NCBI GenBank assembly: GCA_041946805.1
Contig: JBHGBC010000008.1
Span: forward strand, 16,991 to 80,990
Reading direction: 5' to 3'
Length of the DNA stretch: 64,000 nt
Origin: a bacterium
GTDB lineage: Bacteria; Hinthialibacterota; Hinthialibacteria; Hinthialibacterales; Hinthialibacteraceae
In this document: one piece after another, positions 29,295-58,864 of the stretch
Layout: each line of letters begins with the position of its first letter
Position numbering within the stretch: position 1 is the stretch's first letter
Position numbers and translations under genes: made by a program
Notes under the pieces: model-generated
Told to the model about the DNA's origin: nothing
Databases searched by the model: none
What the model saw: the letters and a program-made list of their open reading frames with translations, nothing else

Positions 29295-30074
29295 TTAGTG
29301 CTGTGCTTCCCAATCCGCGGGAGTCACATTCGCCGGACCTTCCGACAGATACAAATCGAGTACGGCCCGGCCGGACAGCGCTTCGTTATAAATGCGGGCG
29401 TTGTCCAAGTAACCCTTGAACATTTCACCCTCTGCTTTTTCATTGTCTCCACCCATGAACAAGGGTTGAGGGTTATTGAGTTCCAGGGTCTGGGGTTGTG
29501 TGCTCACCACCACTCCATTCCGGTAATAGATCAGCAACGGGCCTTTTTTGACGATGACATGATGCACCCACACACCAATGGGGGGGTCCGCGTAATCCAA
29601 GTTGTCGGTGCCCAACGTGTTGGCGTGGAATTCAAATTTGGTCGGCGTGAATTTGATGAACTCGCGCGGAGAAAATTCAGCGGCATTAATGTCCTTCCGG
29701 TTTCCAAAGATAATATTGTTCCCCGCGTTTCCAGCTTCGACTTTGACCCAGATGGCCCAGGTGAAGTTGGTATCGAATTTCATCGCGGGAACGATGTCCT
29801 TGCCCACTTGCACGTACGCGCCGGCCGCGGTCCCGCCGAAACTGATCACGGAGCCCCGCGCGGGATCCTGCGCCCAGACCGAACCGCCTGCGCCCAATCC
29901 TTTCGTGGGGTTGACAATGGTTCCATCCTTGCCCTGGCCGCTGGAGTCGGCGGCCTTTTCGCCCGTACCTTCGTCAAATTTCCAAAATCCGATCAAATCG
30001 GCCTGCGCGCTCACCGAAAACACCAAGCCACCCAGAACCAATCCAATCACGATCCACGATCCGTTTCTCTTCAT
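29295..30074 (-). CDS. Secreted LamG-like jellyroll (Laminin_G_3) domain protein
   Basis: Signal peptide; LIGFWKFDEGTG..ADSSG, FTWAIWVK, WVHHV, FKGYLDNARIYNEALS; tail VTPADWEAQH. Confidence 0.85.
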   Translation of the reverse strand: MKRNGSWIVIGLVLGGLVFSVSAQADLIGFWKFDEGTGEKAADSSGQGKDGTIVNPTKGLGAGGSVWAQDPARGSVISFGGTAAGAYVQVGKDIVPAMKFDTNFTWAIWVKVEAGNAGNNIIFGNRKDINAAEFSPREFIKFTPTKFEFHANTLGTDNLDYADPPIGVWVHHVIVKKGPLLIYYRNGVVVSTQPQTLELNNPQPLFMGGDNEKAEGEMFKGYLDNARIYNEALSGRAVLDLYLSEGPANVTPADWEAQH

Positions 30075-30348
30075 TATTGTCTCCTCTACGTTGGAATAAG
30101 ATTGGATAATTGTATTGATCTAATGGTATTTCAATTGATTCTATGAAAAAAAGAGAGGTCGTCTAGGTTCCTGCCGCATTAGGAGCCTGAATGGGATAAA
30201 AAAACAGTTCATCTGAGAATTGCGGACATGAAGAAACAGCATCTTACCCAATCGCCTCAAGATGAGGGTATACACTCAGGTCCGTTCTTACTAGGTTCTG
30301 TTGAGTTTTCGTAATGAATGTTGGACTGGAATGCGTACTCGTCTTTTC

Positions 30349-30487
30349 AGCGCCAACGGCGCGGCATGAGTGTAGCCCAGGGCGTAAGCCCTGGGAAAAG
30401 GACGACAAAAGAAATTATTCCCTCTCCCTCTAGGAGAGGGTTAGGGTGAGGGAAGCCCGGAAAGGGCGAAATGTATCCTTTCTCTGC
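30349..30487. repeat. REP-like cluster (GCGCCAACGGCGC..AGCCCAGGGCGTAAGCCCTGGG + inverted 70-bp composite)
   Basis: First unit recurs inverted at 59001-59046 and 59976-60061. Confidence 0.8.
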
Positions 30488-30512
30488 AATCCAGTAAAAA
30501 GTTACAAATATT

Positions 30513-31361
30513 CTAATTGTCAGTGAGATTTTGATTCTCTGGTATGGTTTCTTGAGGTAAAACGTCCTCCATTTCCACGATGTCACCAGAGGCTTCACTT
30601 GGTAAATTATTCTTGACAGTTCGTAAGGGACGTACCGAGCCCTTTTTGACCCGGGCCAAGGACGATTTTAGTTGTTCACTTTCCATGATCTCTCGTTTAA
30701 TCACTTCCTCCGTTAAGCAAGTTTTGATTTCGGCGGTATTGATTGAAACATTGGGTGAAACACGCCGTAATTCTCTGCGGATGAGGTTCAGAATGATGTC
30801 GTTCAGAAGGATCGCGGCAATGGTATATTTGTTGGTGGCCTGTTTTTGCAGATGATAACTTTCCAGAGCCGATTTTCCGATTGCCTCCCGAGTCAATAAG
30901 AAGAGCAATTCGAGATGTGAGGCCGTCTTATGGCATAAATCCAGTAGGTTCAACTCAAAAATCAGTTCATAGTTAATTGGTTTTAAAAAAATAACTTTAT
31001 AAATTCTCCAAATGATGCCATTCGTCAGAACCACCCATTCCACGCCTTCGTTGGCCGCGTAATCGATGGCTTGGCGGAGGTGCATGTCTTTCAATTCCAA
31101 GCCGACTGCTTTTACTTCGATGAGTAAGCGCAGTTTCCCTTCTACCTGGATGGCTAAATCGACAAAGGTTCCCCGGATTGCGTGTTCGCGAGTGATTTCA
31201 TTGTATTTATCATAGCCAAACAAGTCGGCCAATACATCAGAAATAAAAGTAACTGTATCGGCTTCATTCACGTCACGATCTCGGAGGATCTGGATAATCG
31301 GCTGATATTTTTTCAGATTCTCAGCCAATCGTTCCTCGACTTTTTTGGGAATGGCTGCCAT
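30513..31361 (-). CDS. Stand-alone type I restriction enzyme HsdR N-terminal-like (PD-(D/E)xK) nuclease
   Basis: NEADT, FGYD, REH..VDLAI, LLIEVK, QAIDYA, VVLTNGIIWRIY; visibly AT-richer than its neighbours. Confidence 0.82.
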   Translation of the reverse strand: MAAIPKKVEERLAENLKKYQPIIQILRDRDVNEADTVTFISDVLADLFGYDKYNEITREHAIRGTFVDLAIQVEGKLRLLIEVKAVGLELKDMHLRQAIDYAANEGVEWVVLTNGIIWRIYKVIFLKPINYELIFELNLLDLCHKTASHLELLFLLTREAIGKSALESYHLQKQATNKYTIAAILLNDIILNLIRRELRRVSPNVSINTAEIKTCLTEEVIKREIMESEQLKSSLARVKKGSVRPLRTVKNNLPSEASGDIVEMEDVLPQETIPENQNLTDN

Positions 31362-31655
31362 GGAATTGACCTCCTTTGTTTATTCCGGTTGGGCTGCGGA
31401 TAAAACCCGAAGTGTACGCTCTATGAATGAATCTAAAATATAGTTTTATCTTTGAAAATAAATCCAATTTTAATTATTTCAAATAAAAAATGACTTGTCA
31501 ATTCATCCATTTTCTATTTTTACCGATTTATGAGAATTGTGACCACGGGAAAATCCGACCCCTGAATCCACATCACCCACCCGAGATGGGTTCCCAGGTC
31601 GAACGGTTTTAAAGAAACTACCTTATGTGCGCCGCCGCGTATCCTCGGACCCGTT

Positions 31656-32405
31656 TCAATACAAATCCCATCCCGGCACGTCCGCGGGAGGCTGGGCGAA
31701 GGTATAGACGATGCCGATGTCGTTGGTGGCGGGATCGGGATCGGGCATCCATTCCGCCGAGGTGTAATTCTCGTCCTCGGTCTCGAAAACGAGCACGAAA
31801 TCGCTATAGGCGGGATCAAAGAGGGGCGTTTCGTCCGGATTGGACAGCCCCGGCTGGCCGTCTTCCATGTTTTTATAGACCAGGTCGCGGCGGATGGCGA
31901 ATTCCACGTCCGTGACATTGCCTTCCATGGGCGCCACGTCCGCGTACGCGAAGGTGCCCCACAGATTCTCATCGCTGGCCGGATCGATGGTGCAAACCCA
32001 GTCTCCGCACCGCTGGTCGAATATCTGCCGTCCCTGGATGTTGAACTCCGAGCCGAAGTTCGCCGGCCAGCGGTGGCCGGTCGTGCTGTCCATGTCGGTG
32101 TCGAAGCCCGTGTTCAGGTACCAAAAGAAATCCCCGTAGGGTTGAGGACTGGTAAACTCGATCCGGAAATAAAAAAAGTCCTTGTCGTTGGCCAGGTAGG
32201 CCGCGGCGAAATCGTAATGCAATCCGCCGTCGCCGCTGGGATCCTGGCAGGCTGGTCCGATGCCGGTCCAGTCGCTCACATCACCGTCCACTTGAATGGT
32301 CCGGTAAACCGGCGTCGCGGTAATGATGCCATAATCGTCCTGCGCCAAACCCGGGAGGCAAGCCAATCCCAGGAACAGGATGAAAATACCCACTTTTCGC
32401 CGCAT
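31656..32405 (-). CDS. Secreted acidic protein with CBM9/DOMON-like sugar-binding fold
   Basis: GGAGG RBS before the ATG at 32405; signal peptide; IQVDGDVSDW..DPSGD, YLANDKDFFYFRI, DTDMDSTTG, VEFAI; tail DVPGWDLY. Confidence 0.7.
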   Translation of the reverse strand: MRRKVGIFILFLGLACLPGLAQDDYGIITATPVYRTIQVDGDVSDWTGIGPACQDPSGDGGLHYDFAAAYLANDKDFFYFRIEFTSPQPYGDFFWYLNTGFDTDMDSTTGHRWPANFGSEFNIQGRQIFDQRCGDWVCTIDPASDENLWGTFAYADVAPMEGNVTDVEFAIRRDLVYKNMEDGQPGLSNPDETPLFDPAYSDFVLVFETEDENYTSAEWMPDPDPATNDIGIVYTFAQPPADVPGWDLY

Positions 32406-32620
32406 GTTGCCACCTCCAGAAGGATTTCCGCCCGCAGGATTCCGCGCAGGCAGGCGATCATGATTCTCCATGATGCCCGCGGGAGTTGTCAATGGATTGT
32501 TGAATATCCGGAGTGAACATCCGGGAGGGCGAGGGGAGGTGAAAAGGCCGGGCGTGGACGCGAAGGATTCCGCGCGGCGCGCTGATCCATCCCAGGGAAC
32601 CGGCTCATAAGCAATCCCGC

Positions 32621-35206
32621 TCACGCGTCGTGGTGGATTTCGGATTCCGGTGGCGCCGCCGCCAGGTCTTCCAATCCGGCCGGCGGTTCGTGTCCGGCGA
32701 TTTCGTCCAAGAAACCGGGAGGGACCGGCTCGACCGACAAGATTTCATACCGCCCCGTGTGCATGGGCAGTTCGACATCGACGATTTCACCCATTTGTCT
32801 GCCGTAAAACGTCTGTGCGAAGGGGGCCTGGTAGGAAAGGATGTTCCGGCTGGGATCGGATTCCCACGGCCCCAGCATGATGTACTCTTCCACCTTGTCC
32901 GCGCTGGAGGGCGAAACCCGGAAACGGGCGCCGAAGCCGATCCGCCCGGTGTCCACCTCGCCGAGCTCCACCGGCTTGGCCGTGTGCAGGCTTTCCTTGA
33001 GTTCCGCCGCCTGCGCGGCGAGGAGTTTCTGTTTGTCCTTGGCCGCGTGATATTCCGCGTTTTCGCGCAAATCCCCGTGTTTGCGGGCGGTCTCGATCTC
33101 CCGGACCACCTCGGGGAGTTCCACTTCGATCAGGCGGCGCAGCAAGGCCCGTTTCCGGTCGTAGGTGGCCTTGAGGCAGAGCAGACCCTCGGGCAGGGCC
33201 GGGCCTTCCGTGGCGGCCGCGGTGAACAGGTTGGGATACCGCGCCCGGACAATCGTGGTCAAATCCGCCGCGGTCCGCTGGTCGATGCCTTCGTTGGTGA
33301 GGGCGCGGCGGTAGATGGACTGCGCCACCGTCTCGTCCGCGTTCTGAATGTGAAGTTTGAAGAGGTTGTAATGGTTCCGGCGGATCAGTTCCCGCGCGTC
33401 GCCCGCCACCTTGCGCAAGCGGGCCGCCTCGTCCTTATCCCGCCGTTTGGCCTGGCTGGTCAGGTAATCGACCAGCAGCAGCAAGCGTTCGATCACCACC
33501 GCCGGGCTGATTTTCCCCTCGCACCAGTTCGTTCCCTCACCGGTGAGGATCCGGCCCCCCAGCCAAATAAAGGTATGCGGAAAGGTCCGGAAGTTGGCCA
33601 GCGCCTGCTCCACGACCTCCAGAATGCAGGCCTGGCATCCCTCTTGCTCCAGGTCGCGGGCCAGTTCGTCACGGACCAACACGTCGGGTTCCAGCAGCAA
33701 TGCCTGAAAGAGGCCCGGCCACTCGGCGGGATGCGCTTGCTTGATTTCCCGCGCGAAGAGCGCCTGGTGCGATTTGAACCGCAAGTGCTGCATGATGGCG
33801 CTCAGCCGGGTGACATCGCGCAAGGCTTCGTCGAGGATCACCCGGTCCACGGATTCGATACCCGGGGCGTAGGCCTTCAGATCCTCGTTGGTGAACCACA
33901 ATTCCACCCGCTCCGCCCGGCTGCGCCGCGAGGGAGCCATGGCCTGGATTTTCCGGGAAAAATGCTGGACCACGTACTCATGCAGATCGCCCTTCTTGGT
34001 GGTGCGCAGGTAGGTATAGATCTGATCGACCTTGTCGTGCGGAGCCTTGGTCTCATCGAAGCGCAGCAATAATTCCTCCTCGTCACTGACTTCCTGTTCC
34101 CGCAGGACGTACTTTTTCAACGCCCCGGCGCTCACCGCGATGAACTTTTCCCGCCGCAGCGCCGAACTGGTTTCGGACCACCAGGAAGTCCATTCGCGCA
34201 CGTTGATCACCGCCGGAACCAGGTGCTCCTTGATTTCCTTGGCGGTCAGGGAGCCGCCATAACTTTTTAGCAGCAGTTTGATCAATCCGACGGGATTTTC
34301 GCGGAGCAAGGCCGTCAGTCCGCTGGGATTGATCACCCGTTGCACGCGGAAATCATCGGCGGAAAGCGGTTCGATCACCGTTTGGGCCAGTTCCACGTCC
34401 ATGGCGTGGTCGCGCTTCTTCTGAAAGTTGATGACCACCCGCCGGTCCAGCATGTTCAGATCCTTGACCAGCCCGATCCCCCAATCCGGATGCCGCACAT
34501 AGCAACCGGGCAGGAAATTCATGAACAACTCCACTTCCACCAATGCCTCGGGCAGGGGACGGTTGCCGCGGATGCCGGTGTAATCCAAGACCCGCTCCAT
34601 CGAGCTGGATTCGGGGTGCAACTGCCGCAGGGTTTCGACCAGGGGTTCCCGCAAGGAGGGATCCTTGGGTGTGTACTCGAGGATCCGCCGGAGAAGGCGG
34701 AACCGGTTGGGCCAGTCCTTGCGCTCCTCGGTGGAAGGGAGAAGCATTTGCAGCAGCACGGAGGCCCGCTGGCGCTGCTTGATGCCGTTCAGGTGATCGG
34801 CGACGCGGAAAAAGAAATTGAGGTTTTGCGGCTCCAGTTCCACCATATCCAGCCACAGTTCCTCGATTTTGTCATACTGCCTTTCGGCGGTGGCGGCTTC
34901 GAGAGCGATCTCCAGGTGCCGGACCGCCTCCTTTTCATTCCCCATCTCCATAAAATATTGCGACAACCGTTGCGCGGTCTCCACGACCCGGTCCTTGAGT
35001 TCCAACAGACGCTCCAAGGCCCTTTCGTACTCCGCGTCTTTCCGTTGGAGGCGTTCCAAGGCCTGCGCCAACGCCCGCAGGAGGATGGGCGCATCCGGCT
35101 CGAATTGGAGACGATCCCGGGCTTTTTCCGCCAGACCACACCAATTTTCGCTCTGGCGCAATTGGTTCAACTCTTCCATAAGGTGATCTAAGTCTTTCAT
35201 TTCCAT
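32621..35206 (-). CDS. greA: Long (861 aa) GreA-family transcript cleavage factor fusion
   Basis: C-terminal IETARKHGDLRENAEYHAAK and LGPWESDPSRNILSYQAP; N-terminal TPR-like helices and a VRHPDWGIGLV beta module. Confidence 0.88.
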   Translation of the reverse strand: MEMKDLDHLMEELNQLRQSENWCGLAEKARDRLQFEPDAPILLRALAQALERLQRKDAEYERALERLLELKDRVVETAQRLSQYFMEMGNEKEAVRHLEIALEAATAERQYDKIEELWLDMVELEPQNLNFFFRVADHLNGIKQRQRASVLLQMLLPSTEERKDWPNRFRLLRRILEYTPKDPSLREPLVETLRQLHPESSSMERVLDYTGIRGNRPLPEALVEVELFMNFLPGCYVRHPDWGIGLVKDLNMLDRRVVINFQKKRDHAMDVELAQTVIEPLSADDFRVQRVINPSGLTALLRENPVGLIKLLLKSYGGSLTAKEIKEHLVPAVINVREWTSWWSETSSALRREKFIAVSAGALKKYVLREQEVSDEEELLLRFDETKAPHDKVDQIYTYLRTTKKGDLHEYVVQHFSRKIQAMAPSRRSRAERVELWFTNEDLKAYAPGIESVDRVILDEALRDVTRLSAIMQHLRFKSHQALFAREIKQAHPAEWPGLFQALLLEPDVLVRDELARDLEQEGCQACILEVVEQALANFRTFPHTFIWLGGRILTGEGTNWCEGKISPAVVIERLLLLVDYLTSQAKRRDKDEAARLRKVAGDARELIRRNHYNLFKLHIQNADETVAQSIYRRALTNEGIDQRTAADLTTIVRARYPNLFTAAATEGPALPEGLLCLKATYDRKRALLRRLIEVELPEVVREIETARKHGDLRENAEYHAAKDKQKLLAAQAAELKESLHTAKPVELGEVDTGRIGFGARFRVSPSSADKVEEYIMLGPWESDPSRNILSYQAPFAQTFYGRQMGEIVDVELPMHTGRYEILSVEPVPPGFLDEIAGHEPPAGLEDLAAAPPESEIHHDA

Positions 35207-35454
35207 TGGTTTAAACCCATGGCCGGATCTCAGATGGTGAAACGGTTTTCAAACATCTTCCCGCCCCACCCAGGGATGAGGCAAAATGACATTTTAGCAG
35301 GAACCGGGCGTTCAGGCCACGGGCTTAGGCGCGGGGGTGTTTCCCTGGATTGAAACCTTGGGATGCCGGCAGACCGTTGCCCGAAGGGAGACATGTTTGA
35401 ATGATTTGGGAGATCTGGAGGTATACCGGAAGATGATTGCGCCCCGAAAAGTCT

Positions 35455-35490
35455 TTCCCTCACCCTGGCCTTCTCCCGGTGGAGAGGGAA
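35455..35490 (+). repeat. REP-like hairpin CCCTCACCCTGGCCTTCTCCCGGTGGAGAGGG
   Basis: Member of the abundant family. Confidence 0.78.
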
Positions 35491-35639
35491 ACGGATAGAA
35501 AACTAGGGCCAAGGATCTTGGATAATCCAATACAGGATCACATAGAGGCGAATGGGACATTCCTCCCGGATTGTTTCATCCCCCGATTCATGCTATAAGG
35601 CGCAATGCGGCTCAGGATGGCGGAAAGGAACATCGCATC

Positions 35640-36098
35640 GTGCCTGCCCGGCTGACTCACGACTATTTCATGCGGCTGGCCCTCAACCAGGCCCGTATCG
35701 CCGCCGCGTATGGAGACATTCCCGTGGGGGCGGTCGTAGTGCTGGATGGAGCCGTCATCGGCCGGGGACGGAACATGCGCGAATGCCGCCAGGATCCCGC
35801 CGCGCATGCCGAAATCGAGGCCCTGCGGGACGCGGCCGCTCAAATCGGCCGCTGGCGGCTGAACGCGTGTTCGCTTTATTGCACGATGGAACCGTGCGTC
35901 ATGTGCGCGGGCGCCCTCGTCCAGGCACAGGTTGGACACCTTTATTACGGCGCGTCCGATCCCAAGGCGGGCGGGGTGGAAAGCCTGTACCAGATTTTGG
36001 AAGACACCCGGCTCAATCACCAGGTGCTGGTTCATGCGGGAATCCTCCAGGAAGAATGCGAGCGGTTATTGAAAGATTTTTTTGAACGGTTACGATAA
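35640..36098 (+). CDS. tadA: tRNA adenosine(34) deaminase
   Basis: DIPVGAVVV, DPAAHAEI, TMEPCVMCAGA, YGASDPKAG; directly upstream of tRNA-Ser; start approximate. Confidence 0.93.
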   Translation: MPARLTHDYFMRLALNQARIAAAYGDIPVGAVVVLDGAVIGRGRNMRECRQDPAAHAEIEALRDAAAQIGRWRLNACSLYCTMEPCVMCAGALVQAQVGHLYYGASDPKAGGVESLYQILEDTRLNHQVLVHAGILQEECERLLKDFFERLR

Positions 36099-36142
36099 GA
36101 GTTCCCGGGCCTGCAAGGGACCGGATGACAAGAAACCTTTTC

Positions 36143-36232
36143 GGAGGGGTGGCCGAGAGGTCGAAGGCGCCCGCCTCGAAAGCGGGTATACGGGTAACCG
36201 TATCGTGGGTTCGAATCCCACCCCCTCCGCCA
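36143..36232 (+). tRNA. tRNA-Ser (anticodon CGA)
   Basis: GGAGGGG/CCCCTCC acceptor stem, CCCGC-CT-CGA-AA-GCGGG anticodon arm, long variable arm TACGG..CCGTA, GGTTCGAATCC T-loop, encoded CCA end. Confidence 0.97.
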
Positions 36233-36237
36233 GGATC

Positions 36238-37788: not shown

Positions 37789-37981
37789 AGCTTCCTCCCC
37801 CCGGATTCATGTAAATTACAATTCAATCATAGCAATTTAGTGCTTGTATAAACGCAAGGGATTGATATGATATTTATGGCTAATGGAAAGAAATCATCTT
37901 ATTATTCGATCATATCATACGATAATTCTAGTGTACATACGGGTTCGCAGAAACATCGTGTGACTCCTGGAGATCGGGTCA

Positions 37982-38773: not shown

Positions 38774-38979
38774 CCATAGCGCCGGAAATGGAGCGTCCCC
38801 CCCATCGAGGCGTTACGCGGCGCCCGGATTTTTCGTAGTAATGCATTACGGATGGTCCAAGCCAGGGAGTCCCATGGAGCCGGTGGGAAGGGGGGGACGG
38901 CATAATCTCCGTAGCGGCGGCGGATTGCCAACCAGTCATTCACGAGGGAAAGGGGCAAACGACATTGTTCAATGGTTCC

Positions 38980-47691: not shown

Positions 47692-47705
47692 TGTTGCCTC
47701 TGAGC

Positions 47706-49103: not shown

Positions 49104-49220
49104 AAACGAGTAAGCAGGTTCTCGAAGCTTTTCCGGAGAAAAGGGAAGCGGAAACCGCTGCCTGAATGAAAACTGGAACCTGGAAGGATCCCATTCCGTA
49201 TAAGTCAGTGAAGGAGGCCG

Positions 49221-50795
49221 ATGCCCATCATGAGTATCCCTGAAAGAAAACCATCCATCTCATGCCGGCCATTTACGTATCTCATCATGCTGACGTTGTG
49301 CGCCGGTATGTTTATGTTGCCACGTGGGGCGCCCGCCCAAACCGCCGTCGCCTTTCCGCCGGACACGCCCGAGAACCAGGGCCTGTCTTCCGCGGCGCTG
49401 CATGAACTGGCGGGTGAAATCCAGCAGTACCTGGACGAAGATAGCATTCTGGGGGCGGAATTCCTGGTCATCAAAAACCGCCGGACCGTGTTTCATGAAG
49501 TGTTTGGTTGGAAAGACCGGGACGATCAAACACCCATGGAGCGCAACACGCTTTTCAACATCCGGTCCATGACCAAGCCGGTCACCGGCGCGGCGGCGCA
49601 GATCCTGATCGATGAAGGCCGCCTGAGCCTCGAGGATCCCGTGTCCACGTATATCCCCGGTTTTCTCAACGGCCGTTCGGCCGAGGCGACGATCGACCAG
49701 CTACTCACTCACCGGAGCGGATTGCCCTTGTCGATTTTGACCCGGCTGGACGAATATTCCTCTCTTTATGACATGGCTAACGCCATTGGCGAGAAAGGCC
49801 CGCAGTTCAGCCCGGGAACCAAATTCTGGTACAGCGACGCGGGCAGCGAAGCCCTGGGCGCGGTGGGGGAAGTGGCCTCGGGCATGGGCTTGGAAGCCTT
49901 CGTGAATCAGCGGCTGCTCGGGCCGTTGGGGATGAGTGATTCGTTTTACCAAATGCCGGCGGACGATCCCCGGTGGGAACGCGTGGCCAGTGATTATGCG
50001 AGCAGCCAGGGCGAGTGGATACGCTTCTACAAGCCGGGGGGAAAATCCATGTATCCCTTCGCCTGGGGCTCGCAGAGCCTCTACTCCACGCCCGCGGATT
50101 ACGCCAAGTTTTTGGCTATGTGGATGGACCGGGGCCTGGCGTTGAACGGGCAACGTATCCTCTCCGCGGACGCCGTCACACGGACCCTCGCGCCCGTGTC
50201 CGCCATGACCCAATTGAACTCGAACGCGCCCATGCCCTCGGGTTTCCCCGGCCTGAATGTGTTTTACGGCCGGCTGGCGATCGTGTATATGGAGCGCGCC
50301 GCTTCCTCACCCCAAAACCCCATCGTCATCGGCCACAGCGGCTCGGACGGAACCTGGGCGTGGGCTTGGCCGGAGTTGGACCTGATCGTCCTATACTTCA
50401 CCCAGTCGCGGGGAACGATTTCGGGAATCCGGCTGGAGACCGTGATCGACCAGAAACTCATCCATCCCTCGGGTAGCGGCACGATCCCGAAAGAGCAAAA
50501 ACCGTACCTGGGAAACTACCTGGCCAACTACGGCCCCTTCCAGAATGCCGAATTCAAGGTCGTCTCCGTGAACGGCTTTCTGATGCTCGACATCCCCACC
50601 CAGATCATTTTCGAACTGCGGGAACCCGATTCGCGAGGGGTTTGGAAATTCGTCCTGGATGGCAACATGGGAATCTCCTTTGTTGAAGACAATACGGGAA
50701 CCGTCACCGGTTTGCGGTTTCAGGAGTATGGCTCCACGGCCTATATGCCCAAAATTCAAGAAACCCCGGTGGCGGATTGGATTCTGCTGGAGTAA
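49221..50795 (+). CDS. Secreted serine hydrolase (beta-lactamase/class C-like) with C-terminal extension
   Basis: SMTK (SxxK), LLTHRSG, PGTKFWYSD, GHSGSDG; signal peptide; tail TPVADWILLE. Confidence 0.9.
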   Translation: MPIMSIPERKPSISCRPFTYLIMLTLCAGMFMLPRGAPAQTAVAFPPDTPENQGLSSAALHELAGEIQQYLDEDSILGAEFLVIKNRRTVFHEVFGWKDRDDQTPMERNTLFNIRSMTKPVTGAAAQILIDEGRLSLEDPVSTYIPGFLNGRSAEATIDQLLTHRSGLPLSILTRLDEYSSLYDMANAIGEKGPQFSPGTKFWYSDAGSEALGAVGEVASGMGLEAFVNQRLLGPLGMSDSFYQMPADDPRWERVASDYASSQGEWIRFYKPGGKSMYPFAWGSQSLYSTPADYAKFLAMWMDRGLALNGQRILSADAVTRTLAPVSAMTQLNSNAPMPSGFPGLNVFYGRLAIVYMERAASSPQNPIVIGHSGSDGTWAWAWPELDLIVLYFTQSRGTISGIRLETVIDQKLIHPSGSGTIPKEQKPYLGNYLANYGPFQNAEFKVVSVNGFLMLDIPTQIIFELREPDSRGVWKFVLDGNMGISFVEDNTGTVTGLRFQEYGSTAYMPKIQETPVADWILLE

Positions 50796-50959
50796 GGGGA
50801 TGCGACCGCCGGTGGAGTGGTCCCGGTGGTTTGGGCATCATTTCTACATGACCTTAGGCATTGATTTGGATTAAGTTAAGTATAGTTCAGCAATCTAGTT
50901 TTATCATGTAAAAACTAACATTCGAGACGATAGGTTTTGAAATTGCGAGGACGACTTTT

Positions 50960-51855
50960 TGCCGGGGCGTCAGCCATACTCTCGCGAGAAACATCAGTTC
51001 CTGCGCGTTGAGGCGCAAGTTCTTCACGTGGGATTGCCGGACGTGATAGCGCTTGGTGTTGTACAGAAAGAGCCAGGGCGCGTCTTCCCCCGCAATTTGC
51101 TCCGCCTGTTGGTAGAGTTGGTTCCGTTCCTTCTCGTCCGTGGTGGCGATGGCTTGCTCGTGCAGGCGGCCGAATTCAGGATTGGCGTAGGCTGAGTGAT
51201 TCGGTCCCGCGGGGCAGAGGTCAGGACCGTCGAGCAGGGCCAGGAAATTCTCCGGCTCCGGCCCGTCCGCCACCCAGGTCATGCGGAGCAAGACCGGTTC
51301 GTAATGGTCCAGCGATTCCAGGTGCCGGCTCCAGCCGACCATCCGCAGCTGTACAATCACTCCGATTTTACTGAGTTGTTCCCGCACGGCCTCGGCCACG
51401 TTTTCGTTCAGGGTTTCCGCGCTGTTCAATTGCCAAGTGACCTCTGCCAATCCCTGCCTGTTGGGTAATCCGCCAGGACCATGAGTTCGTGGGCTTTATC
51501 CAGGTCTTACGGACACCCTTCCACCGGATCAGCGAATATTCCACATCGCGGGCGGTGACTTCGCGGCTCTTGCCATCCGGAAAACAGGGATCATCGTGAA
51601 AATCCACGCCCTTCCGGATTTTGAAAGTTTATTCCAGGCCATCCGCGGACAGGCGTACGATTCGGCGATGCCGGACCGCGGATTCAGACTGCACAGCGTG
51701 CCTTCTTCGTTTGTCCGGAACAGGCCTTCCAGATGAACACCGGAAGGAGTGATTACACCCTGGCATGTGGGATAGTCGAAACATGTCCCTGGACCGCCGC
51801 AATTGCTTAACAACGGCAGGCTTCCGAAGATCATGCAGATGACCGGATTCCGCAT
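50960..51855 (-). pseudogene. Fragmented ABC peptide/nickel substrate-binding lipoprotein (SBP family 5)
   Basis: Pieces in different frames: lipoprotein-like start LLSNC, EGLF, FHDDPCFPDGKSREVTARDVEYSL, and C-terminal WVADGPEPENFL..YANPEF..YQQAEQI; the middle is missing. Confidence 0.8.
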
Positions 51856-51953
51856 GCATCGTTTCTCGATCCAATCCGGAACCTGGCATGGATAGAGGCC
51901 CTGGCCGGGTTTAAAACAATCAATCGGCGCGTAGCAATGATCACCGTTTTGTC

Positions 51954-54260
51954 TCAGGAACCGGCATACCGGACGCCTTTGACTTCGGGTTCCGGTTCGA
52001 AGCCCGGTTCGATCTCGCCGGTGACCGACCAACCCATCTTGAGGCCCGCCACGAACCAGCCCAGGGCCACCATGCCCACGGTGAAGACGGTATCGCCGAT
52101 GATTCGCAGCCAACGCAGGAAGTCCATGATTCCGGTCTGCATGAACTCGGCGGAGCGGGCGTACCACATGCCGTGTTCGACGCTGGCCCAGGTTTGGAGC
52201 AATCCGCGGGGCAGGTCGGAGAGCAGCACCATGAGGGCCAGGCCGATGTTGATCGACCAGAAGGCGAACGACAACACGCCGGTCCGCCACACGTTGCGGG
52301 CGGCCAGTCCCTTGAGGCAGAAGAGGGTGAGGCCAATGCCCAGCATGCCGTACACGCCGAAGAGGGCGGTGTGGCCGTGCACCGGCGTGGTGTTGAGTCC
52401 TTGCATGTAATAGAGGGCGATGGGGGGATTGATGAGAAATCCGAAAAGGCCCGCACCCACCAGGTTCCAAAAAGCCACGGCGATAAAGCAGTAGATGGGC
52501 CACTTGTAGGCCTGGATCCACTGGCGCGCGCGGCTGAGTTCCAGATTCTCGTACGCCTCGAAGCCGATGAGAACGAGGGGGACGACCTCCAGGGCGCTGA
52601 AAGTGGCGCCCAAGGCCAGAATAGGTGTGGGAGTTCCCGTGAAGTAGAGATGATGGAAGGTGCCGATGATACCGCCCGCCAGGAAGACGGAGCAGGAGAA
52701 CAGCACGGCGGACGTGGCGGTGGCGACGCGCAACAGTCCCATGCGGGTAAAGAGAAAAGCGATGACCACGGTGGCGAAGACTTCGAAGAAACCTTCCACC
52801 CAAAGATGGATGACCCACCAGCGCCAGTATTCGATGATTGAGAGATGCGTCTGGCGGCCCCACATCAGCCCAGCGGTGTAGAAGAGGGCGATGGCTGCGC
52901 TGGCGATGAAGAACATCACCAGCAAATGGCGGTGTTCCCCGGGCTTTTTGAGGGCGGGCCACAGCGCGCGGCCCATGAGGCCCAGCCACAGGAACAGGCC
53001 GATGGTCAAAAAGATCTGCCAGAAGCGGCCGAGGTCCACGTATTCCAGGCCCTGGTGGCCGAACCAGTAATTGGCGGTCAGTCCCAGCCGCTGGCGGGTG
53101 CCGAGCCAGGTGCCGAAGAGAGTCCCGGCGACGATGATGACCAGGCAGACGAAGAGAAAATTGACGCCTTGCTTCTGATATTTGGGTTCATAGCCGGAGA
53201 CGGCGGGCGCCATGAAGAGGCCGGTGGCCAGCCAGGCGGTGGCGATCCAGAAAATGGCCAGTTGCACGTGCCAGGTGCGGCTGACGGCGTACGGCAAAAA
53301 TTGGGCGAGGGGGAAGCCGTAGAAGCCGGAGCCTTCAACCCCATAGTGGGCCGTGATCGCGCCCATGGTGACCTGCACCAGGATGAGGGCGATTACCACC
53401 CAGAAATATTTCAGCGTGGCGTTCATGGATGGCGTGGGCCGCAGCGCCAGCAGGGGATCGCGGTCCGGCAGCGGCGGCTCTTCCCCGGTCTTGGGTTTGC
53501 TCACGGCGTAATACCAGGCCAGGGCGCTGATGCCGGCCAGCAGCAACACGAAACTGAGCACCGACCAAACCACGATGGGGCCGGTGGGCTGATTGTCGAT
53601 CCAGTGTTCGGGAGGCCAGTTCTGCGTGTAGCTGATTTCCTGCCCGGGACGGTTGGTGGCGCAAGCCCAGGCGGTCCAGAAGAAGAAGGCGTTCATCAAC
53701 CGCTGCCGTTCGGGATCGCGCAGGACAAGCGCGGGGATGGCGTAGGCCTCGCGCAGTCCATCCAAGGCGGGATCCTCGCCGAACAAGGCGGCGTAGTGTT
53801 GCCCCACCGCCTCGATGGCCTGGGCGCGGAGATTCGACACCGTGAGAACCCGGGTTTGCGGATCGTAGGTGTTGGTCCGCAATTCGTTCTTCAGCCGGGC
53901 CTTGAGTTCAGCCTGTTTTTCCACATCCAGCGCGGCGTACGAATCGGAGTTGTAGTCTTGCTTCGCCCAAGAATTCAGCAGCCATTCGCATTCGCGGTGT
54001 AGCCAGTCGGCGGACCAGTCGGGAGCGACATAGGAGCCATGGCCCCAGATGGTTCCCAACTGGTGGCCGCCGGCCGATTGCCAGACATTCTGGCCGTCGC
54101 GGATGTCCTGGCCCGTGAACAAGGTCCGGCCGTCCGCGGTGGCCACGCGGTCCGGGATGGGAGGCGCCTCGCGGTAGATGACCCATCCATAGTATCCCAG
54201 AACCGCGAATGACAAGGCGATCACCAAAACCAGGGATGTCCAGAGTTTCCAAAAATTCAT
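51954..54260 (-). CDS. norB: Quinol-dependent nitric oxide reductase (qNor, NorZ/long NorB)
   Basis: GTIWGHGSYVAPDWSADWLH, RTWHVQLAIFW, WWVIHLWVEGFFEVF, GTFHHLYF, HGHTALFGVYG. Confidence 0.96.
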   Translation of the reverse strand: MNFWKLWTSLVLVIALSFAVLGYYGWVIYREAPPIPDRVATADGRTLFTGQDIRDGQNVWQSAGGHQLGTIWGHGSYVAPDWSADWLHRECEWLLNSWAKQDYNSDSYAALDVEKQAELKARLKNELRTNTYDPQTRVLTVSNLRAQAIEAVGQHYAALFGEDPALDGLREAYAIPALVLRDPERQRLMNAFFFWTAWACATNRPGQEISYTQNWPPEHWIDNQPTGPIVVWSVLSFVLLLAGISALAWYYAVSKPKTGEEPPLPDRDPLLALRPTPSMNATLKYFWVVIALILVQVTMGAITAHYGVEGSGFYGFPLAQFLPYAVSRTWHVQLAIFWIATAWLATGLFMAPAVSGYEPKYQKQGVNFLFVCLVIIVAGTLFGTWLGTRQRLGLTANYWFGHQGLEYVDLGRFWQIFLTIGLFLWLGLMGRALWPALKKPGEHRHLLVMFFIASAAIALFYTAGLMWGRQTHLSIIEYWRWWVIHLWVEGFFEVFATVVIAFLFTRMGLLRVATATSAVLFSCSVFLAGGIIGTFHHLYFTGTPTPILALGATFSALEVVPLVLIGFEAYENLELSRARQWIQAYKWPIYCFIAVAFWNLVGAGLFGFLINPPIALYYMQGLNTTPVHGHTALFGVYGMLGIGLTLFCLKGLAARNVWRTGVLSFAFWSINIGLALMVLLSDLPRGLLQTWASVEHGMWYARSAEFMQTGIMDFLRWLRIIGDTVFTVGMVALGWFVAGLKMGWSVTGEIEPGFEPEPEVKGVRYAGS

Positions 54261-54389
54261 CGTCCTCTCCTTCCTATGGCGTTAGCTGAAATCAGGGCTA
54301 TCAACGGAAGACAAAGCATGAATCGATCTCTCCGGACAATCCGGGAGTGATGTGATTTCTCGATAGGGCGGACGGTTCCCGTATGATGC

Positions 54390-54665
54390 AGGCGGCCGTG
54401 CGCGTGAACGGAGGAAACTGCACAGCGGCGTCGGGCCCATCCAAGATACGTTTGAACTCCGGCGTTGAGAAGTAAAAGAACGGCCCCCTGAAAAACCGCG
54501 CACAGACGAGAGTGATGCAACACGGAGGAACGGGGGAAGGCCTTATGGCGAATCACCCGAAAATCATCGGAAAATACCACTTCCAGGCCGCAACGGCGGG
54601 GGCAAGCGCCGGGATTGTTCCAAGAACTCCGGGCTTCCTGACAGACGGGGCAAGGCCGGCAAAAT
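54390..54665 (-). pseudogene. Possible remnant of a heavy-metal P1B-ATPase N-terminus
   Basis: CPVCQEARS..PGACPRRCGLEV resembles the HMBD pattern CPMHPxxxxxxPGxCPxCGMxL; LLLLNAGVQTYLGW resembles a CopA-type TM segment. Confidence 0.35.
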
Positions 54666-54805
54666 CCCTCGCCCGGCGGTGGGAACGCCGTGTCAGGCTG
54701 CGCGGCGCCGAGGCCTGAAAGACATGTCATAATCGTAGTATCACATTCCTTTATCTAATTTGAGGGAGAGTGTATCCGAGGGAATGAAAAACAACACGGC
54801 AGATC

Positions 54806-55228
54806 TTACCGGCGGATTTTCACGGGTTTGGGTTTTTCCAACAGTTGGGCGATGGTGGTCTGGCTGAGCAGGGCGAGATAGGCGTCCCGCACGGTTTTCC
54901 AGCGCTCGTGCATGGCGCAGGGATTCTGTTCGGAACAAGTCTCCCGGCCCAGGATGCAGCCATTCCAGCGGCTGACATGCTCGATCGACTCCACCACGTC
55001 GAGAAGGGTGATGGATTGCGGATCGCGGGCCAGGCGGAAGCCGCCGCCGAGCCCCTTTTGCGATTCGAGCAGGCCGTCCCGGGCGAGCAGTTGCAACAGT
55101 TTTCCCAGATAATTCTTGGGGGCCTTGATGGCCTGGGCGATGCCTGTGGCGCCGGCATAGGCGCTTTCGGGGAGTTCAGCCAGGGCGATCACGGCGCGGA
55201 TGGCGTGGATACCAGTTTTAGAGAGCAT
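54806..55228 (-). CDS. Rrf2 family transcriptional regulator (probable Fe-S/NO sensor)
   Basis: LSKTGIHAIRAV, PKNYLGKLLQ, SQKGLGGGFRLARDPQSITLLDVV, C-x6-C-x5-C-xx-H. Confidence 0.93.
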   Translation of the reverse strand: MLSKTGIHAIRAVIALAELPESAYAGATGIAQAIKAPKNYLGKLLQLLARDGLLESQKGLGGGFRLARDPQSITLLDVVESIEHVSRWNGCILGRETCSEQNPCAMHERWKTVRDAYLALLSQTTIAQLLEKPKPVKIRR

Positions 55229-55269
55229 GACGGCCTTCGGAAACGGGGAGTAATTAATAACTACATGTC

Positions 55270-55297
55270 ATTGTAGGGATATACCGGCCATCGTCAA
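55270..55297 (-). promoter_or_regulatory. Sigma70-type promoter of rrf2
   Basis: Minus strand TTGACG-16 nt-TACAAT; the -10 overlaps a CTACA-n6-TGTAG inverted repeat. Confidence 0.6.
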
Positions 55298-55509
55298 GCA
55301 TGGAGGGAACAAAGAGAGGAAGGTCTCCGGTTTTTTTGGGGTAGAACCGGAATCCGGGAACTACGATTCTCAAATAGGTTCATCCGGCAATTGAGTACAT
55401 GTTGACCGAAAACGCGTATCAATTTCGTTACTCCAAACCGAAGGATAAACAAATTCCTTCCCATGCAATCTTGGAGAGCCAACGGAGGGGATAGGCGTCT
55501 TTGCATGGC

Positions 55510-55626
55510 TTTCCTCAACCCGGCCCTCTCCCAGAGGAAGAAGGAATGTAGGGTGGATCTCTCCAACCAGTCTCATCGAAATCCGGCCACGCGTTCGGAA
55601 AAATGTACGCACGTATCGGATGATCC
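55510..55626 (+). repeat. Hairpin + AAAAATGTACGCAC..GGATGA composite element
   Basis: Same layout at 18349, 25148, 57721 and 59825. Confidence 0.7.
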
Positions 55627-55668
55627 TTTTTTTCTGAGATCCGGAGCTCTGACGAGCTGACAGGTTCA

Positions 55669-57540
55669 TCAATACAGTATCCAGTGTTTGACCGGAACGG
55701 GAATTCCCGATTCCTCGGGCCAGGCGCAGTTGCCGGGGCCGCCGTAAGCGCCCATGTCGCCGCGCATCGTTGCCAATCCAGGTGGCCGGCAAGCGTCGTT
55801 GAAGGCTGGATCGGGATTGCCTGTATCGATACACGGCGAATCGGGCAGCAGATGCAAGTCCGTGGATTCTCCGTCCCCGAGCTGCACAAAACGTGGATCG
55901 GCATCGATGTTTCCCACGCCCGGCCATCCACCCTTGATGCAACTATATGAAACAGGGGCTGTACAGGACGTTACCATCTCGGCTCCTTCATTCCACAAAA
56001 TGCAGTTGGTTACCGTCGATCTGGAGGAAAGATCACAACCAATACCTGTGTTTCCAACGATGGTGCAATTCATTAAATCAAATGGGTTTCCATCAGACGT
56101 GACGGTGGTAGAAATGGCTGAGTTTCTTTGAACTATGCAGTTATAGAGAAAATTTTTTATTGGGGAATTAATTCCCCATGCATTGCCGCTAACAACAGAC
56201 CATCCGCCTGAGTTCTCGGCAATTATGCAGTTCTTAAGAGTGTATCTTTGGCCCCAAATTCCGCTGCATGGTCCATCCTGAACCGAGTTGCCAACAATCT
56301 TGCAATTGACCAGCTGGAATACCCTACCACTCACTCCACCAATCGTCATTCCGGTATTGCCATTGATTGTGCAGTTTTGAATTAGTGGAATTACTGCGTC
56401 CGTGGTTTGACCAAAGAGTACATTAACACTTAAGCCCCCAATCCCCCCACGGTTGCCGCGGATGGTGCAATTCTCCATTCGGCCCCCACCTTCTAGAACA
56501 CAACCGCCCGTCTCACCCATTTCCAACACAACATTCCCAGTAATCGTGCAATCGGTCAGCGTTGATTCACCATAGCAAGACACACCCGCCGCGGCATTGT
56601 ACCAACACCCATCCGTTTTTTGCGTATTGTCAGCCACGATGCAATCGGTCATGGTGACATTGCGGCCAAGCACCCCGCCCCCACAATTTCCGTAATTTTG
56701 GGTGATTTCGCAGTGACTAAATGCTAAATGAGTATCACTCCATGGCGAATTATACACACCGCCTCCCTCGCCGGCGGCATTTCCACTGATTGCGCAGTCG
56801 ATGAAAATCGCGGATGAATAATCGCCGCAGCGTACCCCTCCGCCTTCGCCACCATGATAACTCTGATCTTTGCACATGTTGTCGTTGATGGATGAATGGG
56901 TAAATGCCGCTGAAGTCCAGCCCGCGCAGTACACCCCACCGCCATTGTAATCGGATACATTTCTGGAGATAGCGCAATGATCAAATAGGATGGAAGATCC
57001 TTCCGCGCCGTACACCCCGCCGCCGTCATATCCCATGTTCCCGCTGATTGTGCAATTTGCGAGTAGTATGGAAGAATCCTTAGGGCAAAACACTCCCCCG
57101 CCATTACCGCTCGGAGATCCACCCGTCACGGTAAATCCGTCCAATACCCCGTGATGGGCGGCCTGGACGGCTGTGGCGTTCAGTCCCGTGGCATCGATGA
57201 TCGTTTCATTCGCCGCCCAATCTCGTTCCTCCCGGTATGCCTCATTGCCCGAGAAACCTCCATACATGGGAATCAGGTCTTTCATTTCGATGGCCTCTTT
57301 GTATCGTCCCGAAGCCACCCAGATTTCATCGGTATCGACTATCTTGCCTTGATACTCTCGTGTCACCGCTTGGGCGATCCCCGCGGTCAGGCTGGTGCAG
57401 GCGTTCGCCCAGTTCGATCCACTCCCGTCACCTGTAGCGATAGACGAAACATAAATGACATTACCGGTGGCAGACGGAGTGATGCACAAGATGCACAATA
57501 ATAGAAACAGATTTGAGTATAGGATGTCTTGCTTGATCAT
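55669..57540 (-). CDS. Secreted Cys-rich right-handed parallel beta-helix protein (pectin lyase/Pmp-like)
   Basis: Signal peptide; GDGSGSNWANA, DEIWVASGRY, MYGGFSGNE; repeated GGGVYC / NCTISGN; IDADPRFV..LLPDSPCIDTG..DMGAYG; tail PVKHWILY; AT-richer. Confidence 0.85.
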   Translation of the reverse strand: MIKQDILYSNLFLLLCILCITPSATGNVIYVSSIATGDGSGSNWANACTSLTAGIAQAVTREYQGKIVDTDEIWVASGRYKEAIEMKDLIPMYGGFSGNEAYREERDWAANETIIDATGLNATAVQAAHHGVLDGFTVTGGSPSGNGGGVFCPKDSSILLANCTISGNMGYDGGGVYGAEGSSILFDHCAISRNVSDYNGGGVYCAGWTSAAFTHSSINDNMCKDQSYHGGEGGGVRCGDYSSAIFIDCAISGNAAGEGGGVYNSPWSDTHLAFSHCEITQNYGNCGGGVLGRNVTMTDCIVADNTQKTDGCWYNAAAGVSCYGESTLTDCTITGNVVLEMGETGGCVLEGGGRMENCTIRGNRGGIGGLSVNVLFGQTTDAVIPLIQNCTINGNTGMTIGGVSGRVFQLVNCKIVGNSVQDGPCSGIWGQRYTLKNCIIAENSGGWSVVSGNAWGINSPIKNFLYNCIVQRNSAISTTVTSDGNPFDLMNCTIVGNTGIGCDLSSRSTVTNCILWNEGAEMVTSCTAPVSYSCIKGGWPGVGNIDADPRFVQLGDGESTDLHLLPDSPCIDTGNPDPAFNDACRPPGLATMRGDMGAYGGPGNCAWPEESGIPVPVKHWILY

Positions 57541-57687
57541 CTTCGTTACGTCCTCTCTTGGATTATGAAGGGCAATCAACGCAGACGGCAGAAATTGGAT
57601 AAGTCCAAATCAAACAATCAATAGGTATTTATGGTGGTATCTGTTTACCCGTCTTCTGAAAAAAAGTACGTAACTTTTTACTCAACT

Positions 57688-57837
57688 GCAGAGACAGGAT
57701 GCATTTCACCCTTTCAGGGCTTCCCTCACCCTAATCCTCTCCCAGAGGGAGAGGGGATTTCGGGTCGCTCTCTCCAATCCGTCTAATCAATGTCCGGTCA
57801 GGCTCCAGAAAAAATGTACACACTTATTGGATGAACC
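57688..57837 (+). repeat. Full composite element (CCCTTTCAGGGC unit + hairpin + GTAC motif)
   Basis: Contains both the 70-bp unit and the downstream AAAAATGTACACACTTATTGGATGAACC motif. Confidence 0.8.
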
Positions 57838-57868
57838 TATTTTCCAATTGAACCAATTCGCTTCTCCC

Positions 57869-58864
57869 TCAGTTAAACAACTCCCAACCCGTAACCGAGG
57901 AAGTCAACAGCGTGAGTTCCACCTCCGTGAATGTACACGTGGAATAGAATCCCGGAGAGCCGGAATTACCGATCAGACCGGCGTAAACGGGATCCTTGAA
58001 CGGGATATCGATCTGGTGATGAAGCGCCCAGGCTTGGGTGCTTATGTCAAAGTAATACATACTCAGAGAATTTCCGCGCCGTTCGATGCGAAACCTCCCA
58101 TCGCATACACTCGCATTAATGGGAGAGGTGAATTTACCGCCCTCGCCGGTTCCCAGGTCCCATCCGGAGTAACCACCGCCGTGATTGGTTACAATAACGG
58201 TATAGGAGGCCGTGTTTGTCGATTGTCCGGCTTCTTCTTGTAGTGCATCAGCCACATGCAGGGCAGCAGGATTCTGCTCAGACCGGTTTTCACCGACAAC
58301 TTTCGCCTTCAGCGTGAAGTCACCGCTTACCTGCTTGTAAATAAAATGATAGTATCCCACCGCGTGGATCCGGTACTCTCCGGTTTGGGGATCATAGGCA
58401 GCCTCGTTGGGATACTCCAGAACTTCCATGATATCCCGGTGATCGTCGAAGAGGCCCAGCGGTTCCGGTTTGGCCAAAGTCTGGGATGCCATCCCGCCGA
58501 TCGGAGTGGACCCGAGCATTCCGGAATACACCACCGCACCGTTCGCGTCCACGGGCGGAGTAATATGGTATTGAAAGATTTGGGATCCATCGAAGGCGGT
58601 AAAATCCCACGTGATGACGCCATTTGCAAATGTCATCCCGGCCTTGGGATTGATCGCCTCGGTTTTCCATCCCACCGGTGGAGTTTCGGCCACGGTGATC
58701 GGTCCCGCGTCTCCGGTGACTTCGATGGTTACCAGCTGCTTTTGGTCCGGCCAATACACATTATAGGGCAAGGTCCGTACCGCGGTGACTTGAGCCGAGA
58801 CATCGAGGACAACTCCAAGTTCCATGAGCAACGCCAATAGAGAGAGAATGAGTGACCGCTGCAT
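57869..58864 (-). CDS. Secreted beta-rich hypothetical protein (Ig-like + ConA/beta-xylosidase-C-like domain)
   Basis: Signal peptide; VAETPPVGW..GVITW; FIYKQVSGDFTLKAKV, FRIERRGN, PVYAGL; tail SSVTGWELFN. Confidence 0.72.
   Translation of the reverse strand: MQRSLILSLLALLMELGVVLDVSAQVTAVRTLPYNVYWPDQKQLVTIEVTGDAGPITVAETPPVGWKTEAINPKAGMTFANGVITWDFTAFDGSQIFQYHITPPVDANGAVVYSGMLGSTPIGGMASQTLAKPEPLGLFDDHRDIMEVLEYPNEAAYDPQTGEYRIHAVGYYHFIYKQVSGDFTLKAKVVGENRSEQNPAALHVADALQEEAGQSTNTASYTVIVTNHGGGYSGWDLGTGEGGKFTSPINASVCDGRFRIERRGNSLSMYYFDISTQAWALHHQIDIPFKDPVYAGLIGNSGSPGFYSTCTFTEVELTLLTSSVTGWELFN

Follow-up and report, generated by a model that had tools for sequence, protein, structure and literature searches.

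Five exported proteins in one genomic window

The stretch of DNA analysed here (the window, 64,000 nt) is part of a genome of Candidatus Hinthialibacterota that comprises 6.7 Mb in 315 contigs (designated by C-numbers below) and is 96.8% complete. Within this window, an initial annotation had drawn attention to five exported proteins that all end in a short tail built around a tryptophan, and had proposed this tail as an undescribed sorting signal. The translations of the five genes end in exactly the residues given there. Pfam searches return Laminin_G_3 for the first of these proteins, a CBM9-like assignment without a family for the second, a beta-lactamase fold for the third, a right-handed beta-helix for the fourth and no clear family for the fifth.

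Four of the five tails are members of a common motif, as judged by a core score from a position matrix anchored on the Trp, trained on protein termini and iterated. On the reverse strand, the CBM9-like exported protein sits in an open reading frame (ORF) that extends to 32624; counted from a signal-peptide-like start at 32405 (MRRKVGIFILFLGL), it spans 31656..32405 and ends in PPADVPGWDLY (core score 19.3), with the tail codons for PADVPGWDLY at 31659..31688 from translation and matrix. The serine hydrolase of the beta-lactamase fold (49221..50795, forward strand; PF00144, 5.3e-59) ends in ETPVADWILLE (16.7), and its tail codons for TPVADWILLE (50763..50792, forward strand) include one additional residue past the aromatic position. 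The right-handed beta-helix protein (55669..57540, reverse strand), which has a weak match to the choice-of-anchor Q model, ends in GIPVPVKHWILY with the highest score of the four (21.5); its tail codons for VPVKHWILY lie at 55672..55698 (reverse strand; translation, matrix), and a start Met at 57540 is probable, giving 623 aa, the same length as a database copy (P0008). Finally, the beta-rich exported protein without a clear family (57869..58864, reverse strand; a sub-threshold C1q match only) ends in TSSVTGWELFN (17.6), with the tail codons for SSVTGWELFN at 57872..57901 (reverse strand; translation, matrix). These member tails thus score 16.7–21.5, and a score of 15 is reached by just 0.027% of internal Trp sites.

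The fifth protein, the LamG (Laminin_G_3) exported protein at 29295..30074 on the reverse strand, ends in ANVTPADWEAQH. The initial annotation had counted it as a variant member, but its tail-like end scores 2.4, in a range where even a score of 5 is reached by 0.84% of internal Trp sites, and we place it outside the motif. The proposed Pro/Thr/Ser linker in front of the tails holds in part: positions -9 to -4 before the Trp are rich in P, G, A and T, but the preceding 20 residues are only mildly enriched, and in T and N.

Two smaller observations concern individual proteins. Several paralogues of about 340 aa (C26:637-1656, C26:10010-11041 and one on C89) share the tail of the beta-rich protein (57869-58864) and resemble it at the N-terminus, PTAVR[ST]. 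TafC, a haloarchaeal Tat-fimbria subunit, was considered as an identity for the LamG proteins and rejected; the matches reflect just the shared LamG-type region.

A C-terminal motif on exported proteins throughout the genome

Genes were called with our own simple codon-usage caller, which selected 4373 genes from 24,467 ORFs with a minimum length of 80 aa. Because this caller missed the beta-helix gene (55669), owing to the lower G+C at its locus, we ran the motif scans over all ORFs. The G+C content is 0.52 at 28001-32000 and 0.50 at 56001-60000, against about 0.60, and these stretches hold four of the five genes described above; genome-wide, tail genes are slightly poorer in G+C (median 0.587 versus 0.601, p 1e-8).

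The iterated matrix collects a tail set of 139 ORFs, 131 of which are called genes, or about 3% of the proteome. Their consensus is [T/V/A]-x-[V/I]-x-[D/E]-W-x-[L/V/I]-[Y/F/H](x)-COOH, preceded by positions rich in P, G and A. Three residues follow the Trp in 108 tails, four in 30 and five in a single one. Numbered from the Trp, an acidic residue stands at position -1 in 88 of the 139, L, V or I at +2 in 117 and Y, F or H at +3 in 106; in 31 tails one or two residues extend past the aromatic position.

Several comparisons indicate that the motif belongs to protein ends. Among called genes, 4.3% have a Trp four residues from the end and 2.6% have one five residues from it, against an overall Trp frequency of 1.75%, and no Trp peak near the C-terminus is seen in the non-gene ORFs. 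The core matrix reaches a score of 10 or more at 133 terminal and 47 internal sites among 30,233 scored Trp sites, a comparison that is partly circular, as the matrix was built from termini. The expression V..W.L[YFL] from the initial annotation provides a test that is not circular: it matches 46 of 13,119 terminal positions and 19 of 1,749,885 internal ones, a 323-fold excess, and occurs in just 2 of 20,094 non-gene ORFs.

The tail also marks a subset of exported proteins, as first proposed. Signal-peptide-like N-termini are found on 113 of the 121 complete tail genes (93%) and on 1673 of 4123 other genes (41%; Fisher 6e-34), and a stricter rule gives 76 of 121 versus 938 of 4123. The tail is thus not equally frequent on proteins that lack a signal peptide, and with 139 ORFs it is well represented in the rest of the proteome. 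The carriers are largely unrelated to one another: when the last 12 residues of the 139 proteins are cut off and the remainders compared by blastp, they fall into 76 unrelated groups, of which 63 are singletons and the largest has 42 members. The modules on the cargo are of kinds typical for secreted or surface proteins. Among 85 of these cargo proteins examined with Pfam, CotH (8), LTD (7), Laminin_G_3 (6) and CBM9 (5) recur, S8 and S15 peptidases and cytochrome c are also present, and 42 have no Pfam family at all. A Pfam scan of 137 tail proteins over their last 300 aa finds CBM9_1 most often (13), and Laminin_G_3 in 8. These results extend the idea of unrelated secreted proteins with a common C-terminal tail from one window to the whole genome.

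Two further ends are unusual. One matrix hit, at the beginning of a contig (C223:1-1392, L081), is a partial DNA polymerase III tau/gamma and likely a false positive, and a 144-aa rhodanese (C223:64041-64475) has a tail-like end though it lacks a signal peptide.

One tail protein was modelled with AlphaFold2 over its C-terminal 200 aa, using 13 orthologues. The model has a mean predicted local distance difference test (pLDDT) score of 82.3 and shows a beta-rich domain that is confident as far as residue 188; the final 12 residues have no secondary structure and a pLDDT of about 50. Because these last residues are unstructured in the model, the tail looks like a free, flexible linear motif. Were it to form a strand on binding, T-5, V-3, D/E-1 and Y+3 would point to one face and W0 and L+2 to the other; conserved residues on both faces would fit burial in a groove.

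Another reading is that the tail acts on the membrane, as an interfacial tether or as a signal of the type recognised by the beta-barrel assembly machinery (BAM), with an end rich in Trp and Tyr. Most tails do end on an aromatic residue with a Trp nearby, and aromatic residues favour membrane interfaces. However, the hydrophobic positions do not alternate (W, x, L, Y), the 31 tails noted above do not end on the aromatic position, position -1 is mostly acidic, and stable anchoring would take more than four or five hydrophobic residues. The cargo consists of soluble folds and not of barrels. We therefore regard a membrane or BAM role as quite unlikely.

The tail is conserved across one phylum

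For counts across genomes we used a strict DNA pattern, V-x-[D/E]-W-x-L-Y-stop, with the reversed pattern as control. It has 17 hits in the genome examined here and 4–23 per genome in 19 members of the same family. Across Ca. Hinthialibacterota/OLB16, a phylum with a single class, it is present in 34 of 35 genomes, the exception (G028) being 84% complete; the reversed control gives 0–1 per genome within the phylum. The pattern has no hits in six unrelated small genomes and none in four large ones (Phycisphaerales, Gemmatimonadota, Chloroflexia and Verrucomicrobiales), and 101 Planctomycetota genomes yield 3 strict hits in 2 genomes, the level of the reversed control. The tail is thus found throughout this lineage, with hits in 34 of 35 genomes of the phylum, and is a real, phylum-wide C-terminal tag on exported proteins.

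Orthologues show both the persistence of the tail within the phylum and its absence elsewhere. For a 490-aa tail protein on C244 and a 750-aa tail protein on C112, the Trp tail is kept while its sequence drifts, in 13 of 13 C244 orthologues read to the end and in 14 of 14 C112 homologues. At 24 loci with orthologues of the serine hydrolase, two have the tail, both from this phylum; 19 from other phyla end otherwise and three are not readable to the end.

Might the tail nonetheless have no common function, arising by chance or composition, or as what is left of a mobile C-terminal exon common to these genes? That the motif is short would allow this, and nothing more speaks for it. The 323-fold terminal enrichment, the two matches in 20,094 non-gene ORFs, the reversed control of 0–1 per genome, the retention of the tail in orthologues read to the end while the sequence drifts and its distribution over 76 unrelated groups all argue against such an origin, which we hold to be very improbable.

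The homologues of the beta-helix protein place the tail among other sorting modules. In 120 of them the C-terminus has a common DMGAYGGPGN end; 11 continue with the Trp tail and 6 with a hydrophobic helix and a basic end. Among the others, at least one carries the C-terminal domain (CTD) of the type IX secretion system (T9SS; PF18962), several have dockerin-like ends and many stop right after DMGAYGGPGN. Among these homologues the tail thus stands where others carry a different sorting module. The window protein has the weak choice-of-anchor match noted above, to a class of domains that, as the NCBI names indicate, precede alternative anchors.

Comparison with catalogued sorting signals

The initial annotation held that the tail fits no catalogued sorting signal, and the profile searches agree. 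NCBIfam scans of the five window proteins at E values up to 10 return no sorting-signal model, just the sub-threshold choice-of-anchor Q match on the beta-helix protein. In the last 300 aa of the 137 tail proteins, NCBIfam at E up to 0.1 yields no recurrent sorting model, the top families being TafC (6), ScyE (3) and choice_anch_Q (3), with choice_anch_J at 2, and Pfam yields no recurrent sorting family. Literature searches, mainly of titles and the beginnings of abstracts, found no description of the tail. Thus the tail is undescribed in the databases and literature searched.

It shares several properties with the tripartite signals of LPXTG/sortase, PEP-CTERM/exosortase, GlyGly-CTERM/rhombosortase and MYXO-CTERM/myxosortase. 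Like these, it is a short C-terminal signature that recurs within one lineage on unrelated exported proteins, dozens to hundreds of them, in the same slot after choice-of-anchor domains. Unlike them, it has neither a transmembrane helix nor a basic cluster, the protein stops 3–5 residues past the Trp and no curated model matches it. The exosortase model Exosortase_EpsH has no match in the 96.8%-complete genome, in a search that did not extend to sortase, rhombosortase or myxosortase; a genome search with TIGR02595 (PEP-CTERM) likewise gave no matches, although here the control was also without any match.

The T9SS CTD (type A, TIGR04183/PF18962) is similarly a mark of many enzymes and lectins that are secreted or surface-bound, and it takes the same position in homologues from other phyla. 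However, that domain is a folded unit of 70-100 aa, whereas the tail conserves 9–10 residues that are unstructured in the model. PF18962 had no match in the genome, nor did its control, and it is not among the recurrent families listed for the 137 proteins. The BAM beta-signal has a terminal aromatic residue and alternating hydrophobic residues where a beta-barrel ends. The tail differs from it in its W-x-L-Y pattern with an acidic residue at -1, in the residues past the aromatic position of 31/139 tails and in the soluble domains of its cargo. The WxL domain of Gram-positive bacteria is C-terminal, well over 100 aa long and contains two WxL motifs; the conserved stretch here is about 10 aa, and the WxL family is not among the recurrent Pfam families listed for the 137 proteins.

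Tail genes are enriched beside genes for GspG-like pseudopilins

The initial annotation noted no cognate machinery in the window. We found none there either, but a candidate reader is encoded elsewhere in the genome, in the form of GspG-like pseudopilins and type II secretion (T2SS) clusters. One T2SS-type cluster (C33:576-9298) has the order GspE-F-G-H-I-J-K-L-M and lacks a secretin gene of its own; a second (C16:4234-18997) is similar and includes a 965-aa secretin. Secretin matches number eight over seven contigs, some of them inside Tad-like clusters. Within 13 kb of the secretin genes there is a single tail gene, on C268, and no pattern.

The number of pilin-like genes is large. There are 147 prepilin-like genes, of which about 110 form one GspG-like family of proteins of about 200 aa each (for example C146:18545-19105, C244:23643-24308 and C112:28862-29461). 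Among the 147, 93 carry one of two near-identical 24-mers at the N-terminus (75 with the identical mature sequence, 18 with a one-residue variant), and the family shares the motifs TTP[VI]xY (98/110), DP[FW] (79/110) and one like SNGxxSxGDI (77/110). A DNA pattern for this N-terminus has 28–205 hits per genome in the phylum and 0–2 in six outgroups. A profile of the pseudopilins matches solved pilins over the N-terminal helix only (residues 1 to about 80), and the globular part of the GspG-like family matched no solved structure by sequence.

These pseudopilins emerged from an unbiased test of gene families within two genes of a tail gene, in which they rank first: 27–31 of 99–113 members are such neighbours, with 9.1% expected (p about 1e-8). 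The next family comprises 483-aa proteins with a Tat-like N-terminus (C277:1267-2718 and seven homologues; 5/8, p 2.7e-4), and response regulators are neighbours in 7 of 18 cases. Of the 131 tail genes, 22 are directly adjacent to a pseudopilin gene, against 252 of the 4242 other genes (odds ratio 3.2, p 1.5e-5). When the comparison is restricted to signal-peptide-like genes, a pseudopilin lies within three genes of 23 of 75 tail genes and 135 of 883 others (p 0.0017). Of the 22 adjacent pairs, 19 are on the same strand, with the pseudopilin downstream in 13 of those, and tails below the matrix threshold are enriched beside pseudopilin genes as well (5/217 versus 18/3879, p 0.006).

Two pairs were followed across genomes. 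The 490-aa tail protein on C244 (C244:22111-23583, paired with the pseudopilin at 23643-24308) has an orthologous pseudopilin immediately downstream in 8 of 13 loci read to the tail-bearing end, in three families. For the 750-aa tail protein on C112 (C112:26545-28797, paired with the pseudopilin at 28862-29461), the pseudopilin is retained in 7 of 7 full-length orthologues; seven shorter C112 paralogues lack a pseudopilin next to them. Such conservation does not extend to the flanking genes (1/6 and 1/6 for C112; 5/12 and 0/12 for C244). Both of the pairs tested are thus conserved two-gene units across genera.

The neighbourhoods also inform a different possibility, that the tail is a ligand for a periplasmic PDZ domain, as found in HtrA/DegP, Ctp/Prc, RseP-like or GspC-like proteins, and serves maturation, quality control or degradation and not targeting. 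Hydrophobic C-terminal peptides join PDZ domains as an added strand, the flexible tail mostly ends on an aromatic residue, and the genome has about 12 PDZ proteins, one with three PDZ domains. However, the T2SS and secretin clusters and their surroundings hold no PDZ gene, none appears among the enriched neighbours, and features of the tail itself speak against such a ligand. A carboxylate-anchored pocket should not tolerate the one or two residues past the aromatic position in 31/139 tails, and the conserved positions (-3, -1, 0, +2 and +3 around the Trp) do not follow the P0/P-2 pattern. In addition, a degron on 3% of the proteome, kept phylum-wide on enzymes and lectins, is hard to rationalise. 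Taken together, these points make a PDZ ligand unlikely.

A pseudopilin as a candidate reader of the tail

We consider it probable that the tail is a sorting or docking signal that is read in trans. Its role would then be outer-membrane export or surface docking, as the initial annotation had supposed. Which protein reads it is less clear, and two precedents from type IV filament systems are instructive. According to excerpts of two papers (PMC12918778; PMC13711793), the PilC/PilY1 adhesins dock through their last ~10 residues, in which a conserved Trp is followed by charged and then hydrophobic residues; docking is by beta-strand complementation with the minor pilins PilK/PilX, and in the T2SS the strand is supplied by GspK itself. 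In excerpts of a third (PMC10120004), TcpF owes its export to a short disordered signal, which attaches to the minor pilin TcpB.

As far as those excerpts describe the PilC/PilY1 tail, and that predicted for MshQ, the likeness is considerable: in both cases about 10 extreme C-terminal residues project from a folded domain, the gene lies beside pilin genes, and a conserved Trp is followed 2–3 residues later by a conserved hydrophobic residue, although the Trp is fixed here by the construction of the set. The PilC/PilY1 tail is read by a protein of pilin fold that belongs to a type IV filament machine, and such a reader is predicted for the tail here. The differences are that the tail described here is found on about 139 proteins in 76 unrelated groups and not on one PilY1 propeller, that the neighbouring pilins are GspG-like paralogues and not PilVWX/GspK, and that the pattern is not W-R-E-hydrophobic but W-x-[LVI]-[YFH], its Trp preceded by an acidic residue. 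The TcpF and CofJ signals of type IVb pili, as presented in the excerpts of PMC10120004, are likewise short disordered linear peptides on Sec-exported proteins, and they are bound by a minor pilin at the filament tip (TcpB or CofB), which drives passage through the secretin, much as we propose here. They differ in being N-terminal, in serving one exoprotein per system and in being cleaved on secretion.

By analogy with these systems and with the genomic pairing, we predict that the reader could be the GspG-like pseudopilin family or the T2SS, with the cargo docking after Sec; we rate this assignment as plausible, though somewhat short of an even chance. Cargo would cross the inner membrane by Sec, and the tail would be read in trans afterwards by a pseudopilin: for paired genes the cognate one, and perhaps also any member of the family through its conserved parts. 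The tail may add a beta-strand to the pseudopilin, a strand complementation like that of PilC/PilY1. The loaded pseudopilin would then join a pseudopilus built by one of the two GspE-F-G-H-I-J-K-L-M clusters, and the cargo borne on it would pass one of the secretins, to or through the outer membrane. In its full form, in which the tail is a transferable linear export signal and the cargo is strand-loaded onto a pseudopilin, in many cases one of its own from a neighbouring gene, and pushed through a secretin, we put this scheme forward tentatively.

A number of observations weigh against this scheme. The signal-peptide calls come from our own heuristic rule, whose lenient version also passes 41% of other genes, and the gene calls are likewise our own heuristics. 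The precedent concerns minor pilins of the GspK/PilX type and not GspG-like ones, within what the excerpts cover, and both GspK homologues here seem from their sequences to carry their own last strand. No adjacent pseudopilin gene is found for 109 of the 131 tail genes. Two relatives (G010 and G021) did not reproduce the association significantly: 3 of 27 tail genes have a pseudopilin within 600 nt, with about 5% expected (binomial p 0.15), and the pseudopilin density in their tail windows is 4 observed versus about 4.3 expected. Per-genome counts of tails and pseudopilins are uncoupled (1 versus 165 in G023, 0 versus 28 in G028). The neighbourhood may reflect co-regulation of surface genes instead of binding.

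The same 109 genes without a pseudopilin neighbour favour a sorting signal whose reader is not a pilin: an outer-membrane translocon, a shuttle or a sortase-like peptidase, with the tail acting like a miniature T9SS CTD, perhaps being removed while the cargo is released or attached at the surface. The tail sits where homologues have a T9SS CTD or a hydrophobic helix with a basic end, and it is phylum-wide; moreover, exosortase was not found, and therefore another system must serve the many surface proteins. However, no candidate machine was found, the neighbour test yielded no membrane or peptidase family, and the conserved units of tail gene and pseudopilin are left unexplained. A non-pilin reader, with or without removal of the tail, is thus somewhat less likely than a pseudopilin.

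T2SS substrate recognition is still poorly defined, and to our knowledge no simple linear signal is known for this system. A tag of nine residues on about 3% of the proteome, paired with a cognate pseudopilin, is a concrete and testable model for such recognition. If true, it would explain how substrates are recognised and why dozens to about two hundred GspG-like pseudopilin genes are kept, and it offers a function for otherwise unexplained pseudopilin expansions in this lineage. Whatever the reader, the tag predicts the exported or surface proteome of the uncultivated Hinthialibacterota, is usable in annotation pipelines and may serve as a minimal export tag. In excerpts of one report (PMC9324843), which equates phylum OLB16 with Ca. 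Hinthialibacterota and assigns the isolate SURF_12 to it, members of this phylum are described as degraders of complex organic matter.

Other components of the pilus machinery were considered as acceptors of the tail. A search for PilY1 (PF05567) in the genome gave no match, as did its control, and PilX_N had no match. GspK was rejected as tail acceptor, because the GspK homologues of the C16 and C33 clusters and a GspK-like protein on C79 seem, judging by their C-termini, to end in terminal strands of their own. The GspK of C16 has a long insert rich in Gly, Ser and Asn and ends in GIRVWKVTR, an I-x-x-W-x-V string that resembles the tail. The C79 locus (C79:14130-24531) comprises three large prepilin-like genes (ORFs of 320, 520 and 444 aa) followed by a 2157-aa protein whose N-terminus and C-terminal strands appear GspK-like and which may be a giant tip pseudopilin.

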